Assembly: GCA_023254095.1 (NCBI GenBank) | Contig: JALNLM010000001.1 | Location: 1 to 64,000, forward strand | Origin: Candidatus Geocrenenecus huangii | Lineage (GTDB): Archaea > Thermoproteota > Nitrososphaeria_A > Caldarchaeales > Wolframiiraptoraceae | Length of the DNA: 64,000 nucleotides | Direction: 5' to 3' | In this document: positions 39,846 through 46,401 of the stretch, one piece after another | How the letters are laid out: every line of letters begins with the position of its first letter | Position numbering within the stretch: position 1 is the first letter of the stretch | The notes under the pieces: generated by a model | The model's database searches: none | The model's input: only the letters and a program-made list of their open reading frames with translations | Told to the model about the DNA's origin: nothing | Translations under genes and position numbers: made by a program

Positions 39846-42023
39846 CTATGAAATGTATGCCATGGATTTTTTAAATTCAGTCAGGATCCTTTCGTACTCG
39901 CGTTTCTGTTCAGGCGTTATGCTAGGCTTAATCTTCTCAAGAGCCAATAGGAAATGTCTCATGGATATCTTCTCTATGTTGATGTTCTCACGCATAGCGA
40001 TGATGGCCGCTTCCCTGCATACTGCCTCGATGTCCGCTCCCGTGTATCCCTCCGTCATTGCTGCAAGCTTACTTAAGTCGACGTCATCCGCCAGCGGCAT
40101 CTCACGAGTGTGTATCTGGAATATCTGATATCTTCCATCAGCATCTGGCGGTGGAACGAATATAACTCTATCGAATCTTCCAGGTCTAAGTAGTGCTGGG
40201 TCGAGTATGTCAGGTCTATTCGAGGCCCCTATGACTACGACGCCTTTCAGCGTCTGGATTCCATCCATCTCTGTAAGTAGCTGGTTAACGATTCTATCCG
40301 TCACGCCTGCATCTGCGTGTAAGCCTCTCCTAGGAGCGATCGCGTCAAGTTCATCGAAGAATATTATACATGGCGCGGTTTCTCTAGCTTTCCTAAATAT
40401 CTCCCTAATCGCTTTCTCGGATTCTCCAACCCACTTACTCAATACTTCAGGACCTTTTACACTGATGAAGTTAGCTTCAGACTCCGTGGCGACGGCTTTA
40501 GCGAGAAGAGTTTTGCCCGTTCCAGGCGGACCATACAATAGGATACCTCTCGGAGGTCTTATACCGAGTCTCTTAAAGACCTCGGGATACTTCAGGGGCC
40601 ATTCAACAGCTTCTTTGAGTTCCTGTTTAACAGATTGAAGGTTCCCTACATCCTCCCATTTAACGTTGGGGATCTCTAGAATTACTTCTCTAAGAGCTGA
40701 CGGCTGAATCATTCTTAGAGCGTTCGCAAAGTCTTCTCTCGTAACCTTTAGTTGTTCAAGTATCTCTGCGGGTATGACTTCCTTCTCCAGATCTATCTTC
40801 GGCAAGAATCTCCTAAGAGCGTTCATCGCCGCTTCACGGCATAATGCTGCGAGGTCTGCTCCCGTAAATCCATGAGTTATATCCGATATCTCGTCGAGGT
40901 CAACATCTTCTGAGAGAGGCATTCTACGTGTATGTATCTGTAGTATCTCTTTCCTTCCATTTCTATCCGGTACGCCAATCCTTATTTCTCTATCAAATCT
41001 TCCAGGCCGTCTTAAGGCAGGATCTATAGCTTCTATTCTATTGGTTGCTCCTATAACTATTACTTGACCTCTCCCTTTCAACCCATCCATCAATGCTAGT
41101 AGTTGTGAGACAACTCTTCTCTCAACTTCTCCTGTTACCTCGCTTCTCTTAGGAGCGATCGCGTCCAGCTCATCAATGAAGATAATGCTCGGAGCATTCT
41201 GCTCGGCTTCCTGGAAGACCTCTCTAAGCCTAGCCTCACTTTCACCATAGAATTTGCTCATGATCTCTGGTCCATTTATGGAGATGAAGTGGGCTCCTGT
41301 CTCGTTGGCTATAGCCTTCGCGATCAAGGTCTTGCCTGTTCCAGGCGGACCATAGAGTATTACGCCTTTAGGCGGATCTATGCCTAGATGTCGGAAGAGT
41401 TCCGGATGTTTCAATGGTAGTTCTATCATTTCCCTAATCCTTTGTAGCTCTTCATGCAGTCCACCTATGTCTTCGTATGTGACTCCAGTTGTCTCTTCAA
41501 GTCTCTTAACTGGAGAGGTGCTAACCTCTACAATCGTGTTCTCGGATACTATTACGGCATTTGTAGGAGATGTCGATGTTACTTTGAGCTCTATTCCCAT
41601 GCCCAATATAGGGACTACTACCGTATCTCCTTTCATTACAGGAAGATTCAGCAACTGGCTCTTCACTATTCTTGCAAAGTCTCCTACGAACGGGAGGGTC
41701 TCATATGGAGCGAGAACTATCTTCGCAGCCGGTTTAGCGTTTGCTTTAGAGATTCTCACGTATTCGCCTACTGATACACCTGCATTTCTCCTAACCTCAC
41801 CATCAATCCTCACTAGACCCATACCATCATCTTCTTTATATGGTGGCCATACGATGGCTATCGTCGTCCTCTTACCTGTAATCTCAACTAGGTCACCTGG
41901 GCTGAGATTGAGCTCTCTAAGAGCTCTACTATCGACTCTGGCTATCTTTCTCCCGATATCCCGCTGCCTAGCTTCGGCGACTCGAAGCTGAACTTCTCTC
42001 TTTCCTCCACTGTTACTCCACAT
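39846..42023 (-). CDS. cdc48: Cdc48/VCP family AAA+ ATPase
   Basis: N domain plus two AAA modules (GPPGTGKT twice, DELD twice, [10 protein letters not shown] and [10 protein letters not shown]). Confidence 0.97.
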
Positions 42024-42242
42024 ACCTTTATTCTGTTATACTAGATGTCGAAACAACCATATAATGATTTTCCCTCAACATCATCTTCGACTAATACATG
42101 AGCTATTAACCTGTAAAGATATAGAGAATATAGAGACGTAAGCATTGAGATCAAGATCATTTAAAGATTTAGGCTATCTTATCCTTGTGTGTGGATTTTA
42201 TGGAAGAAGTTTAATACGAGTAGTTTATCTTCTCTAACAGAA

Positions 42243-42656
42243 TTGGGTGTAGATTTTTCAGAAGAATGGCTTAGAAACCAGCTTAGAGAATTGAATAGGG
42301 ATCTTCCTAGAGTTAGGGTTCCCCTCGCACGTCTACTTGAAATGGATAACCCGTCAGTCGAAACCGTTGGAGGAGATATCCATTACTTTGATAAAAGAGA
42401 ATTGAGAGAATTAGCAGAAATCTTGCCCAGCGAATTACATGAGAAACTAAAGCTACCGCTAGTGTTTAGGAGAAGTTTGGAGGTAGGGGAAAGCATCTAT
42501 TTTCTAGATGGGGGAGGAGCAGAAGCCGAAGTCTTGAAAAAGCTTCTAGGATTAGAATTTACACCATCCATTCAGCAGAGATACTATACGTATAAACCGG
42601 TTATCACTAAGCTGATTTCTAGATTCCCCTCTATAGTAGTTATTGGAGTCATCTAG
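42243..42656 (+). CDS. DUF61-like archaeal protein
   Basis: LN..LP..R..L..LL....P......G..H.FDK.EL...LKLP pattern. Start uncertain (42189 or 42243). Confidence 0.75.
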   Translation: MGVDFSEEWLRNQLRELNRDLPRVRVPLARLLEMDNPSVETVGGDIHYFDKRELRELAEILPSELHEKLKLPLVFRRSLEVGESIYFLDGGGAEAEVLKKLLGLEFTPSIQQRYYTYKPVITKLISRFPSIVVIGVI

Positions 42657-43365
42657 TTGAAAGTTTTTTCACGGCTCGGTACAGCGGTATTGCTACAGCC
42701 ACTCCGATTACTACTTGACCAAAATTAACTGGTAATTCACCGAGTGCATAGTATCCTAATATGAATTGCTCGTATACGAAGTAGCCTGAAACCATTATCA
42801 ATCCTGAGAGTAGTAATACCAGCAATAGTAATCCATCGGCTTTCCTAGACCTTACAGTCAGATACAATGGTGTTGCAATTCCTAGAACTGCCAGAGGATA
42901 CCATATAAGTGGATGGATAACCCCTGCTATAGACATAAGCAGAGTGAATGAAGCTTCGAACTCTCCAGAAAGAATGTATAGCCCAACTAAGAGAATTGCG
43001 AATAGATATCCAGCAGATACGATTAAGGATAGAATAAATATTCTAGATGTTTTTTCTCTACCTGTTAGCTTTAAAGCCAGATACCCTGCAGCCCATCCCT
43101 CTGCAGCTTTTATCAAGAGTGTGGCTGGAGCATAGATATGGTATCCTAGGATGACGTCTGCTAGAGCTGAACCTACACCTCCTGCGAAGGCACCGACAAG
43201 TGGACCAAAAAACAGAGCAGTGAAATAGATCATGGTTTCTCCTAAGTTAAAATATCCTCTCGTAGCCGGAACATATACTGTAAAGACTATAGTTGCGGCA
43301 GTCACTAACGCTGTGGATAATGCAAGCCTCGCTGTCTTTAAACCCAAGTATGAAGTAGATTCCAT
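42649..43365 (-). CDS. ECF transporter S component
   Basis: ALV..AT, PATRGYFNLGE, GP..GAFAGGVGSALAD, APATL.IK..EG and MV.GYF.YE...N.GQ motifs. Confidence 0.9.
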   Translation of the reverse strand: MESTSYLGLKTARLALSTALVTAATIVFTVYVPATRGYFNLGETMIYFTALFFGPLVGAFAGGVGSALADVILGYHIYAPATLLIKAAEGWAAGYLALKLTGREKTSRIFILSLIVSAGYLFAILLVGLYILSGEFEASFTLLMSIAGVIHPLIWYPLAVLGIATPLYLTVRSRKADGLLLLVLLLSGLIMVSGYFVYEQFILGYYALGELPVNFGQVVIGVAVAIPLYRAVKKLSTR

Positions 43366-43421
43366 TCTCTTTTATCTAGGTTCTGAAAGCAATATATAAG
43401 ATAAACCCTACATATAGGGAG

Positions 43422-44861
43422 ATGAGGATCGAGTTAACCTGCCCTAGATGTGGTAGAAAGAAAGAGTATGATGCATTTAGCGGAAATCTTTGTAGTTGTA
43501 GAACTCCCTATCTAATCGATTATCCCGTCTTCGTAAAGTATGGTTCTGAGCTTTCAAAACTATTTGCTTCAAGACCTAAAGGTGTCTGGAGATATCTAGA
43601 GCTTCTACCTCCTACTACGATTAGCCCAATATCTATGGGTGAGGGTGGAACATATTTTCATCATTCAGAAGGTCTTGGTAGACAGATTGGTTTAAGAAAA
43701 CTATACATAAAGAATGAAGCTACAAATCCTACAGGCGCATTTACAGATAGGGGGGCATCTATTGAATTAACTAAGATCGTTGAGATAGGCGTTCGAAAGA
43801 TTCTGTGTGTGGCGGCGGGGAATCTTGCTGTCTCTATAGCTGGATACTCTGCTAAGGCAGGGATCCCTTGTTCAGTCTACCTGAAACATGGAGTAGAACA
43901 GGTGAAAATATTACAGGCACTTGCATACGATGCAGAAGTATATTTCACTAATGATCCTCAGATAACGATTAGGCTGCTCGGAGAATCTTCTAGCCAATAC
44001 ATAGTTACATCCTTAAGCCCTCTACTAATAGAAGGATACAAGACATGCATCCTCGAAATTCTAGAACAATTTGATTGGAATTCTCCTGACTGGGTCTCTA
44101 TACCTATTGGCAGTGGATCGCATATCACAGCATGCTGGAAAGCATTAAGAGAAACTGAGAAACTGGACTTAGTAAAAAACAGTCTACCAAAGATCTTGGG
44201 AGGACAGATCTCCTCATGTGCACCGATCGCTGAAGCATTCATGAAGAATAAAGAAGATGCAGAGCCACTACAAGTAGATAAAACAATATTTCCCGAGATC
44301 TCTGATCCTAGCCCAGCCTGGGCTTATACTGCTCTTAGAGCCGTAAGAGAACTGGGTGGAGCAATAGTTAAGGTAGACGAAGAAGAATTGATGAAAGCCA
44401 TCAAACTGCTTGCAAAAAATGAAGGAATACTAGCTGAGCCGGCGTCTGCCGTAGCACTAGCATCTATGATAAAGGCAGTAGAACTCGGAGTAATAAAGAG
44501 AGATGAATCGGTTGTCTATATTGTTACAGGATCTGGAATGAAGGATCCCTCGATCATAAAAGTAGTAACTGAAAGCAGGAACTTTTCAGAGATGGGAAAA
44601 GAGAAACGAATAGGATTCACTAAGATGAAGATCCTAGAATTATTGTTCGAGAAGCCTCTCCACGGATACGCAATCCAGAAAGAACTAGCTCTTAGGCATG
44701 GTCTCAAGATAAGCCTTCCCACTACCTATGAACATTTAAGAGATCTCCAGACAATGGGTCTAATACAACAATCTCTAATATCGAGGAATAGAGAAAAGAG
44801 GCTTAGGAAAAAATATATTATAACTGAGAGAGGGAAATGGTTTCTTAGAAGAACCGTCTAA
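43422..44861 (+). CDS. Threonine synthase-like (PLP fold type II) protein lacking the catalytic Lys, fused to a C-terminal PadR-like winged helix
   Basis: N-terminal Zn ribbon, GVWRY, MGEGGT, NPTGAFTDRG (canonical NPTGSFKDRG), EPASA and TGSGMKD, then KILELL..KPLHGY.I...YEHLRDL...GLI...RKKY.ITERG. Confidence 0.85.
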   Translation: MRIELTCPRCGRKKEYDAFSGNLCSCRTPYLIDYPVFVKYGSELSKLFASRPKGVWRYLELLPPTTISPISMGEGGTYFHHSEGLGRQIGLRKLYIKNEATNPTGAFTDRGASIELTKIVEIGVRKILCVAAGNLAVSIAGYSAKAGIPCSVYLKHGVEQVKILQALAYDAEVYFTNDPQITIRLLGESSSQYIVTSLSPLLIEGYKTCILEILEQFDWNSPDWVSIPIGSGSHITACWKALRETEKLDLVKNSLPKILGGQISSCAPIAEAFMKNKEDAEPLQVDKTIFPEISDPSPAWAYTALRAVRELGGAIVKVDEEELMKAIKLLAKNEGILAEPASAVALASMIKAVELGVIKRDESVVYIVTGSGMKDPSIIKVVTESRNFSEMGKEKRIGFTKMKILELLFEKPLHGYAIQKELALRHGLKISLPTTYEHLRDLQTMGLIQQSLISRNREKRLRKKYIITERGKWFLRRTV

Positions 44862-45145
44862 TATAGTATCGAGAACTCTTTGAATTCTCCTACGTATTCT
44901 TCCCATTCAACCTCTATGTTTGTTACCTTTGCTCCAGATGGACCTATCCAGCACCATGATAACAATTTCTTAATATCTTCTTTCTCTCCTTCAAATACTG
45001 CTTCAACTCTCCCATCAGGTAGATTCCTGATCCAACCTTTCACACCAAGCTTATCAGCCATCTTTTTAGTATTCGACCTATAGAAGACACCTTGAACTCT
45101 ACCTTCGATAATAACATGAGCTCTCGCTTTCAACAGATTCACCAC
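44858..45145 (-). CDS. acyP: Acylphosphatase
   Basis: GRVQGVFYR, GWIRNLPDGRVEAVFEG and GP..A.V motifs. Confidence 0.95.
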   Translation of the reverse strand: MVNLLKARAHVIIEGRVQGVFYRSNTKKMADKLGVKGWIRNLPDGRVEAVFEGEKEDIKKLLSWCWIGPSGAKVTNIEVEWEEYVGEFKEFSILY

Positions 45146-45255: not shown

Positions 45256-46401
45256 ATGAAAGTCGACGTAGTAGTCGTAGGAGGAGGAGCCATTGGCTTA
45301 ATCGCTGCTAAGACGTTAGCTGAAAACAATGTTGAATCTACACTGATTGAAGAACATGAGGAGGTAGGTCTCCCGGAACATTGTGCTGGACTATTCAGTC
45401 TCCTTAATTTTAGAAGGCTAGGTCTTCCGACAATGGGAAAACATGTTGAGAATATAGTGAGAGGAGCGGTCTTTCATTCACCTAAAGGTAGAGAAATTAT
45501 GTTAGATGCTGGGAAGACGATAGCAATTGTTACTTCTAGAAAAATGTTAGACTCTTTCTTAGCACATGAATATGAACGGAGAGGTGGAGAGCTTATCTTG
45601 GGGGAGAGAGTGGTAGACCTATCTTTTACTAACGAACTTGTAAGAGTGAGGACAAAAAGCGGCTTAGAGGTAAGAGCAAAGAAAGTAATAGACGCTGAAG
45701 GTATGGTTTCTGCTTTGCTTAAAAAAACGTTAAAGAAAACTACCGAGAGGAAGATGTGGATCCCTATAATACAGGTATGGGTAGAGAATCATTCACTAGA
45801 CCCGAGATACGTTTATCTATTTTTCGAAGAATATCTTCCAGAATTCTTTGCCTACATAATCCCAGTAGATGATGAAGTAGGAAAACTTGGAGTAGCATCG
45901 AGAACTTGTTTGAAAATGAAATTAGAGAAATTTATCACAAGGAGGACTCCAGGTTTAAAGATCATTCGAAGTGTCTCACACGCAGTTTACACGGGTAGAC
46001 CGTTGAGACCCGACTCAAGCTCTATGATTATTCCTGTTGGAGATGTAGCTGGACACGTTAAGGCTAGTACGGGTGGAGGAGTAGTAATGGGTGGCCTAAT
46101 AGCAAGGAGCATCTGTAGGATCATCGCCTCTCAGCTTGCAGGAGTATCGGAGACAGCTAGCCAGGATAAGAGAACAATAGGTTATCTCATAAGAGAATTA
46201 AACAAGATCGCAAGCTTTATGAAATTATTCAGAAGCTTGCCCATTCATATTATTGAGAGATTATTCGAAATCATCGATAAAAGTAACCTCGTTGAAGAGT
46301 TATCTAGGAAGGCAGACATGGATTTCCAATTTACGTCGATCTCAAGAATACTTATGAGTCCAGGTATTTTGGCCAGACTTCTATTCGCTTCTTTAACCTA
46401 A
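45256..46401 (+). CDS. Geranylgeranyl reductase family flavoprotein
   Basis: VVGGGAIG, P.HCAGL, DAEG, FAYIIP and VGD.AG.VK..TGGG motifs. Confidence 0.85.
   Translation: MKVDVVVVGGGAIGLIAAKTLAENNVESTLIEEHEEVGLPEHCAGLFSLLNFRRLGLPTMGKHVENIVRGAVFHSPKGREIMLDAGKTIAIVTSRKMLDSFLAHEYERRGGELILGERVVDLSFTNELVRVRTKSGLEVRAKKVIDAEGMVSALLKKTLKKTTERKMWIPIIQVWVENHSLDPRYVYLFFEEYLPEFFAYIIPVDDEVGKLGVASRTCLKMKLEKFITRRTPGLKIIRSVSHAVYTGRPLRPDSSSMIIPVGDVAGHVKASTGGGVVMGGLIARSICRIIASQLAGVSETASQDKRTIGYLIRELNKIASFMKLFRSLPIHIIERLFEIIDKSNLVEELSRKADMDFQFTSISRILMSPGILARLLFASLT

Follow-up and report, generated by a model that had tools for sequence, protein, structure and literature searches.

What does an archaeal cell do with a threonine-synthase-like protein that has lost the lysine to which its cofactor would be bound and that ends in a DNA-binding domain? 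The question is raised by a locus in the first 64,000 nucleotides of contig JALNLM010000001.1 of Candidatus Geocrenenecus huangii (assembly GCA_023254095.1); this whole stretch, called the window below, is contig C13 of an archaeal genome of 1.6 Mb that is 96% complete. Within it, a gene for a threonine synthase (ThrC)-like domain fused to a PadR-type winged helix-turn-helix (wHTH) lies head to head with a gene for an S component of the energy-coupling factor (ECF) type (Table 1). An earlier note on this DNA had proposed that the fusion protein is a sensor, either of a B6 vitamer or of an amino acid, that controls uptake. From sequence comparison and structure prediction we regard the fusion as probably a transcription factor that responds to vitamin B6 and controls genes for its uptake and synthesis; that pyridoxal 5'-phosphate (PLP) is its ligand and repression its mode of action are narrower proposals, to which we give even chances.

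A threonine-synthase fold without its Schiff-base lysine

The architecture of the fusion protein is clear from profile searches. Pfam assigns it a PALP domain (E 2.9e-62, residues 70–370) followed by a PadR domain, PF03551 (E 4.9e-11, 42.9 bits against a cut-off of 27, residues 404–476), the latter bearing out the PadR-like C-terminus read by the earlier note; no match to a GntR or aminotransferase Pfam domain was found in the protein. The enzyme part matches PDB entry 2zsj in a sequence search (E 3.5e-54). In an AlphaFold2 (AF2) model built on 97 relatives, with a mean predicted local distance difference test score (pLDDT) of 93.4, a predicted template-modelling (TM) score of 0.80 and disorder confined to the linker at residues 387–394, the large domain fits solved threonine synthase structures at a Foldseek TM of 0.85–0.86, normalised by target length. 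The modelled C-terminal part shares with PadR regulators three helices (residues 399–444), a two-strand wing (448–467) and a short C-terminal helix. Direct reading of the window agrees with the earlier note on all coordinates and on the altered motifs: a threonine stands where the Schiff-base lysine would be, in NPTGAFTDRG around residue 108, the substrate loop reads AAGN (131–134) and the phosphate loop PIGSGSH (228–234).

Could this nevertheless be an ordinary, active threonine synthase, in which a sequencing error or a harmless substitution has hidden the lysine and the wHTH is incidental? The codon, ACA, is one base from AAA; the threonine synthase profile TIGR00260 is passed, by the narrow margin of 169.4 against 167.1 bits, and public annotation names relatives of the fusion threonine synthase. 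The NF004170 score of 255.9, however, falls far under the cut-off of 421, and NF006050 reaches 249.9 against 303. NF004170, an "equivalog" profile, itself extends over the wHTH part (model positions to 438 of 442), so that part of the fusion family is already filed as threonine synthase; it had no members above its cut-off among 14 named control genomes. The earlier note had asked that the reads be verified at 43744, and the threonine codon there is identical in contigs of four runs from four studies, although the window may itself derive from one of these runs and two of them have contig ends lying no more than 5 bases from the codon. Since the contigs of four runs agree, the threonine is not an assembly slip. 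Between 43300 and 44900 the four runs differ solely at 43376, 43420 and 44729; at 43420, two bases before the regulator ATG and outside the palindrome described below, three of the four have G, not A.

Stronger support for a true loss of the lysine comes from the relatives, which show the same loss. The family set combined 120 listed matches from a word-indexed search with the 150 best representatives from an exhaustive search, one being shared, to give 269 proteins and, with the query, 270 rows; sorted by their alignment over residues 400–475, these comprised 97 fusions, 154 unfused relatives and 19 rows excluded as truncated or as carrying other C-terminal domains. Both Pfam domains, PALP and PadR, are present in all 97 fusions. 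The Schiff-base position holds lysine in 153 of the 154 unfused relatives, whereas it is occupied by another residue in 95 of the 97 fusions (leucine in 33, isoleucine in 21, threonine in 17, valine in 9, arginine in 6, methionine in 5 and others, with lysine in 2). Thus, when fusions of this type are collected, as the earlier note had suggested, loss of the lysine is family-wide and tied to the fusion. The same genome encodes two further thrC-like genes that retain the lysine (C8:16036-17013 and C1:112900-114042), the separate intact copies for which that note had recommended a search. Because of these two lysine-bearing paralogues and the loss throughout the family, in which many different residues replace the lysine, the 479-residue protein is a predicted pseudoenzyme and not the cell's threonine synthase, and the notion of an active enzyme with an incidental wHTH is almost certainly wrong.

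The fusion arose once. In a FastTree phylogeny of the enzyme domain, computed with the lysine column masked, the 97 fusions and one truncated row form a single clade with a Shimodaira–Hasegawa (SH)-like support of 94. Within it, a basal group of 10, whose own support is weak (58), has arginine in six, lysine in two, serine in one and alanine in one at the lysine site, and the remaining 88 members, with a support of 97, have no lysine at all. Members of the basal subclade (P0183, P0203 and L045) combine a lysine at the Schiff-base position with a PadR domain; such lysine-keeping fusions may be enzymes that also regulate, or may represent a stage before the loss.

What the pocket has retained bears on the identity of the ligand. 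N134 is kept in 82 of the 97 fusions, G230 in 93, G232 in all 97 and T369 in 95, and the pair T369–G370 is also conserved. The positions that presumably serve substrate and phosphate binding, roles that we carry over from the literature on Thermus threonine synthase, differ between the two groups: serine occupies position 131 in 143 of 154 enzymes and in 36 of 97 fusions; asparagine occupies position 196 in 87 of 154 enzymes, where the fusions have threonine, serine and others; and tyrosine or arginine occupies position 202 in 83 of 154 enzymes, compared with leucine or phenylalanine in 63 of 97 fusions. The substrate-loop and polar positions that set the groups apart are variable or hydrophobic in the fusions. 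Because the phosphate loop and the ring contacts are kept while the lysine and the amino-acid loop are lost, we infer that the pocket would bind the free phosphorylated cofactor in preference to a cofactor–amino-acid adduct. A sensor of the GabR type would work differently: PLP would be a fixed cofactor, and threonine, O-phosphohomoserine or serine would be the signal, read through an external aldimine. The descent of the domain from threonine synthase would suit such a sensor, and a fold type II enzyme with the same lysine-to-threonine change, the K87T variant of the tryptophan synthase beta subunit, has reportedly been crystallised with ligands at its active site. Yet the S-T-G-N-T-type loop and the phosphate-binding asparagine and arginine positions are replaced in the fusions, often by hydrophobic residues, and the genes linked to the fusion, considered next, point elsewhere.

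Linkage to candidate vitamin B6 uptake genes and to B6 synthesis genes

The divergent partner of the fusion gene encodes a candidate B6 uptake protein. It belongs to PF07155 (ECF-ribofla_trS; E 7.1e-27, 94.9 bits, cut-off 26.7), the family to which PMC9997740 assigns both known B6 S components, PdxU and PdxU2/HmpT, and it matches NCBIfam profiles weakly (TIGR04002, 35 bits, cut-off 120). The protein contains the motif RGYFNLGE, in which the earlier note had seen a resemblance to HmpT/PdxU; its sole sequence match in the PDB is 4hzu_S (E 1.4e-9), with no other S component at E up to 10. According to PMC4860826, chain S of 4HZU is HmpT/PdxU2 of Lactobacillus brevis, a protein first called HmpT for a predicted role in the transport of hydroxymethylpyrimidine (HMP) and from which pyridoxamine was extracted. 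By hand count, four of the five pocket residues named in that source are identical in the alignment (E41/E43, Y120/Y195, N140/N214 and Q143/Q217); the window's protein differs from PdxU2/HmpT in that His84 aligns to Lys86 and in about 70 extra residues in its middle (query 98-170, unaligned). The host genome has two EcfT (PF02361) genes, C23:32424-33047 and C17:124233-124814. A second PF07155 S-component gene, C17:122270-122635, lies 1.6 kb from the EcfT gene on C17, and this C17 set is probably the shared ECF module that would energise the window's solitary S protein.

Adjacency of the fusion to an S gene is conserved across phyla, which settles in the affirmative a linkage that the earlier note had put forward as a check. 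A full-length fusion occurs in 25 of 61 genomes of the order. We compared 24 loci from it, the window's own and 23 others, one of which begins at a contig end; at all 23 assessable loci the S gene adjoins the fusion and is divergent from it, over-long starts of open reading frames (ORFs) being allowed for, and in three of the 23 the S neighbour is a distant 303-residue form of PF07155. A further 22 loci came from other lineages (Bathyarchaeia, Thorarchaeota, Hermodarchaeota, Thermoplasmata, Methanomethylicota, Jordarchaeum, Ignisphaera and others). There, an S gene is adjacent in 14, being divergent in eight, downstream on the same strand in four and convergent in two; in the remaining loci it lies 2.9 kb away (one), is replaced by pdxS-pdxT (one) or gives way to unrelated neighbours (four), or the contig end cuts the locus (two). 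As the linkage survives these changes of orientation, it argues for a functional tie between the two genes. Ten close S orthologues (L115–L124) keep the window's CDC48/DUF61/FAD-oxidoreductase neighbourhood (FAD, flavin adenine dinucleotide) without a regulator gene; at these loci the fusion was lost, or was never inserted.

In four lineages the fusion lies instead beside pdxS-pdxT, the genes of B6 synthesis. In a Thermoplasmata metagenome-assembled genome (MAG), the two are divergent and their spacer holds two palindromes, CCTATGCATAGG and CCTTATGTATAGG; the same divergent arrangement, with an exact CCTATATATAGG, recurs in four genomes of genus g21; genome G329 has it without an exact palindrome, and in G356 the order is fusion, pdxS, pdxT on one strand. 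The six loci of g21 (four), G329 and G356 were picked after the genes had been seen to share contigs, and they serve as examples, not as a rate. Within g21, the genomes with pdxS-pdxT (L128–L131) keep the site exact; of the four without it, three (L134, L136 and L137, not L135) have an extra base inserted in the site that precedes the fusion (CCTATATATTAGG), perhaps because an operator left without its target is decaying. In those g21 genomes that lack pdxS, we considered the divergent neighbour of the fusion as a new B6 transporter and rejected the idea, as its product is a GH18-like protein.

Since the fusion is linked to pdxS-pdxT and occurs mostly in genomes without detected PdxS, the ligand is narrowed to B6 rather than an amino acid. 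Of the two signals offered by the earlier note, then, the B6 vitamer is retained, and the amino acid is not: the linked genes are candidate B6 uptake genes and B6 synthesis genes, no conserved amino-acid gene was found near the fusion in the neighbourhoods examined, and a GabR-type amino-acid sensor is, in our judgement, distinctly unlikely.

The distribution of the genes among genomes carries the argument further. In the order, PdxS is present in none of the 25 fusion genomes against 21 of the 36 others. An S orthologue (E up to 1e-15) was found in 36 of the 61 genomes, only two of them with PdxS, and one of these two co-occurrences is a 48-residue fragment with a stop; in genus g2, S is present in all four genomes without PdxS and missing from eight of the ten with it. 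We extended the comparison to a phylum sample of 401 genomes at least 80% complete, scoring a fusion wherever a match ran from the end of the enzyme domain into the wHTH; a further 59 weaker matches are not included in these scores, and fusion counts are therefore lower bounds. S was found in 200 genomes and PdxS in 189 (both in 28, S only in 172, PdxS only in 161, neither in 40); put otherwise, 172 of the 212 genomes lacking PdxS have S, as do 28 of the 189 that have PdxS, and family tallies show this pattern of exclusion recurring in many families. The fusion follows S: it occurs in at least 117 of the 401 genomes, 105 of these 117 having S and 21 having PdxS, that is, in at least 105 of the 200 genomes with S against at least 12 of the 201 others.

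These distributions also bear on the suggestion that the pair handles the thiamine precursor HMP or its phosphate (HMP-P), the S protein being an HmpT in the original sense of that name and the dead pocket binding HMP-P, a molecule resembling PLP or pyridoxamine 5'-phosphate. The host genome offers this suggestion some footing, as neither ThiC nor PdxS was found in it and it has one strong kinase of the ThiD/PdxK family; the first name of the nearest solved S component points the same way. Against it stand the pyridoxamine found in that very protein (PMC4860826), the pdxS-pdxT genes beside the regulator in four lineages and the scarcity of ThiC, present in 4 of the 61 genomes of the order. Moreover, the 11 genomes of genera g6 and g9 lack both ThiC and S and yet have PdxS, so that PdxS predicts the absence of S and ThiC does not. 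We give the HMP reading little credence, and prefer a B6 vitamer as the signal.

The two-way promoter and the proposed switch

The fusion and S genes of the window share a compact divergent promoter, and here, too, the features described in the earlier note, namely the 56-bp spacer, a TATA-like element and a palindrome, are found where it had placed them. The palindrome reads in full CCCTA-CATA-TAGGG (43406-43419). The centre of the ATATATAA core (43392-43399) in the TATA element lies about 26–27 nt before the fusion ATG, a distance that fits a leaderless transcript, and about 30 nt before the S ATG; read by hand in the window and in relatives, the S start codon is 21–25 nt from the other edge of the TATA element. 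One TATA box may therefore fire both ways and serve two leaderless genes, as judged from these spacings.

The palindrome that the earlier note had singled out is the conserved element of these promoters. From Caldarchaeales to Thorarchaeota, a common architecture recurs, consisting of a ATATATAAG-like TATA box, exactly six variable bases, CCTAYATATAGG, 2–29 nt and the regulator ATG. Of 41 fusion promoters that could be assessed (44 rows minus L008, L032 and L108, which have no upstream DNA), 27 carry an exact CCTA-N4-TAGG, many of the 27 being close kin, and four more have one mismatch; the exact ones include four from Thorarchaeota, two from Bathyarchaeia/Nitrososphaerota MAGs and one from the Thermoplasmata MAG. 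For comparison, the motif was counted 38 times in the 1.04 Mb of all loci examined. The exact CCTAYATATAGG is present in a single copy in the 1.6-Mb host genome and a control pattern in two, and we take the significance of the palindrome from its conservation at the same promoter position in relatives, not from its rarity in one genome. A search for a wider regulon allowing one mismatch gave 3 matches for the window against 0.9 expected, a number reached in 9 of 100 shuffles, and no further targets could be named; likewise, no exact site was found in 20 regions upstream of unlinked S genes. The unlinked S genes of g21 (L148–L155 and L164–L166) have a conserved CTTA(C/A)TATAGG followed by CCTTAATATAAGG, about 40–60 nt before the S start. 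This element, similar but not identical to CCTAYATATAGG, may be a variant operator acted on in trans or just a promoter, and we do not use it as evidence.

We envision the fusion as a one-component transcription factor in which the dead threonine-synthase domain would be the sensor and the PadR winged helix the output. Threonine synthases and PadR proteins are dimers, and because of this and of the palindromic site we propose a dimeric repressor, which would bind CCTACATATAGG between the TATA box and its own start codon. When B6 is plentiful, likely as PLP held reversibly in the old cofactor pocket, the regulator would shut off both its own gene and the divergent S gene; when B6 is scarce, it would leave the DNA and uptake would rise. 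In B6-synthesising relatives, this regulator and its operator would act in front of pdxS-pdxT. The site, at about -15 to -4 of the fusion gene, occupies the classic archaeal repressor position, where polymerase recruitment would be blocked.

The opposite sign of control has also to be considered for the target genes, namely that a B6 sensor activates the S gene or pdxST from a site upstream of their TATA box and B-recognition element (BRE) and represses only itself. Viewed from the S gene, the palindrome does lie beyond the TATA box, and a site upstream of the TATA box is the usual position of an activator in archaea. Several lineages, however, have regulator and target on the same strand behind a single promoter, as fusion–S units (L022, L024, L033, L138, L141, L142, L144 and L146) or as a fusion–pdxS–pdxT unit (L133), and because such units have a single promoter, one control mode must serve both genes; repression is favoured for this reason. 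At L091, moreover, the spacer is long, at 140 bp, and contains two sites, one near each gene. We consider activation of the targets unlikely and retain repression of both genes as the mode proposed for the B6 regulator.

Several observations weigh against a B6 regulator of this kind. Unrelated genes neighbour the fusion at L014, L015, L027 and L040 and in the g21 genomes without pdxS. At the 10 loci of regulator-free S genes (L115–L124; genera g8, g2 and g3), neither the fusion nor a PadR match nor the palindrome was found, and 95 of the 200 S-bearing genomes of the phylum sample lack the regulator (at least 105 have it); since about half do without the fusion, the regulator is dispensable. 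S and PdxS coexist in 28 genomes, and 21 of the at least 117 fusion genomes have PdxS, adjacent to the fusion in only 6, these being counts over incomplete MAGs and phylogenetically non-independent genomes, from which no p-value is to be read. The absence of ThiC from the host genome means that an HMP transporter would fit this genome taken alone. Two members of the basal subclade retain the lysine, and the palindrome was not found in the promoters of this Arg/Lys-type subclade, whose Arg-type members must use another site. Finally, relative to the S gene the operator lies on the far, upstream side of the TATA box, and archaeal factors can also activate from such a position.

With these points included, we mildly favour the broader proposal that the family is the missing archaeal B6 regulator. 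It would be an ancient family of Thermoproteota, Asgard archaea and Thermoplasmata, whose lysine was lost so that the pocket reads free PLP reversibly, and it would control uptake or de novo synthesis through one 12-bp operator on a two-way promoter with a shared TATA box, having converged on the solution of bacterial PdxR.

Known systems and surrounding genes

The nearest parallel to such a regulator is found in the bacterial PdxR/MocR/GabR proteins, in which a PLP-enzyme fold is likewise reused as a sensor and fused to a winged helix. In PMC5320631, PdxR regulons are described as comprising pdxST, pdxK and the transporter gene pdxU, often divergent from the regulator, which is the same target set and layout as here, and MocR regulators are stated to be absent from Archaea. 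The two families are built differently: in MocR proteins a GntR wHTH at the N-terminus precedes an aminotransferase domain of fold type I in which the lysine is kept, whereas the fusion ends in a PadR-type wHTH, its enzyme domain is of fold type II and its lysine is gone, so that the fusion is an analogue of MocR and not a member. With threonine synthases (TIGR00260, NF006050 and NF004170) it shares the fold and the zinc ribbon, and it departs from them in the missing Schiff-base lysine, the altered substrate loop, the extra wHTH and a linkage to B6 genes, not threonine genes. Known PadR proteins are small stand-alone repressors, and we know of none with a PLP-enzyme domain. In Archaea, ThiR for thiamine and RbkR for riboflavin combine an enzyme-derived ligand domain with a helix-turn-helix that acts on vitamin genes; the fusion follows the same logic with different folds and for a different vitamin. 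Our literature search, outside which most subscription journals and supplements fell, found no account of a ThrC–PadR protein or of another archaeal B6 regulator. An enzyme-derived vitamin regulator is thus of a kind known in Archaea, and the ThrC–PadR variant for B6 is new.

Several consequences would follow. If the proposal is true, a large share of archaeal "threonine synthase" annotations is wrong, and, given this naming, metabolic reconstructions may overcount threonine synthesis and miss B6 auxotrophy. The family would be a natural case of an enzyme turned sensor through loss of the residue that ties the ligand covalently. PMC9997740 counts only three characterised prokaryotic B6 transporters; the fusion family offers a testable regulator, a defined candidate operator and a candidate archaeal B6 transporter together. 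Because several carriers are complete single-contig genomes (G270, G145, G362 and G232), tests in cultivable strains may be possible.

Table 1. Coordinates of the fusion gene, its divergent partner and their parts in the window
Feature	Position	Strand	Basis and remarks
S-component gene, ECF type, 238 residues	42649-43365	-	ORF; PF07155; candidate B6 (PdxU2/HmpT-like) uptake protein and candidate regulated target
Divergent intergenic region, 56 bp, compact two-way promoter	43366-43421		Sequence; same layout in relatives
TATA-like element AATATATAAG	43391-43400		Sequence; ATATATAAG, 6 nt and palindrome kept from Caldarchaeales to Thorarchaeota
12-bp palindrome CCTACATATAGG, candidate wHTH-dimer operator	43407-43418		About -15 to -4 of the fusion gene
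Gene for ThrC-like predicted pseudoenzyme fused to PadR wHTH, 479 residues plus stop	43422-44861	+	ORF, Pfam, AF2, Foldseek
N-terminal four-cysteine zinc ribbon (C7, C10, C25, C27)	43440-43502	+	Alignment; common to unfused relatives
Fold type II PLP-enzyme domain, residues 70-370	43629-44531	+	Pfam PALP; pocket kept, lysine and substrate loop changed
Codon ACA, Thr108, replacing the Schiff-base lysine	43743-43745	+	Sequence and alignment; other contigs agree
Flexible linker between sensor and DNA-binding domain, residues 387-394	44580-44603	+	Sole segment with pLDDT <50
PadR-type winged helix-turn-helix, residues 404-476	44631-44849	+	Pfam PF03551

The pair is flanked on one side by genes for a CDC48-like AAA ATPase (39846-42023, judged from its translation) and a DUF61 protein (42189-42656), and on the other by genes for an acylphosphatase (44858-45145) and an FAD-dependent oxidoreductase (45256-46401); none of these four neighbours was found linked to the fusion in other lineages. 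The relatives' labels include Nitrososphaeria archaeon, and Candidatus Pelearchaeum belongs to the same order as the host. Elsewhere in the host genome, at locus L002 (C1:111553-115530), a lysine-bearing thrC-like gene lies between a second PALP-family gene and a gene for a ThiF/MoeB-like E1 protein, a set that recalls sulfur-carrier-dependent amino-acid synthesis.

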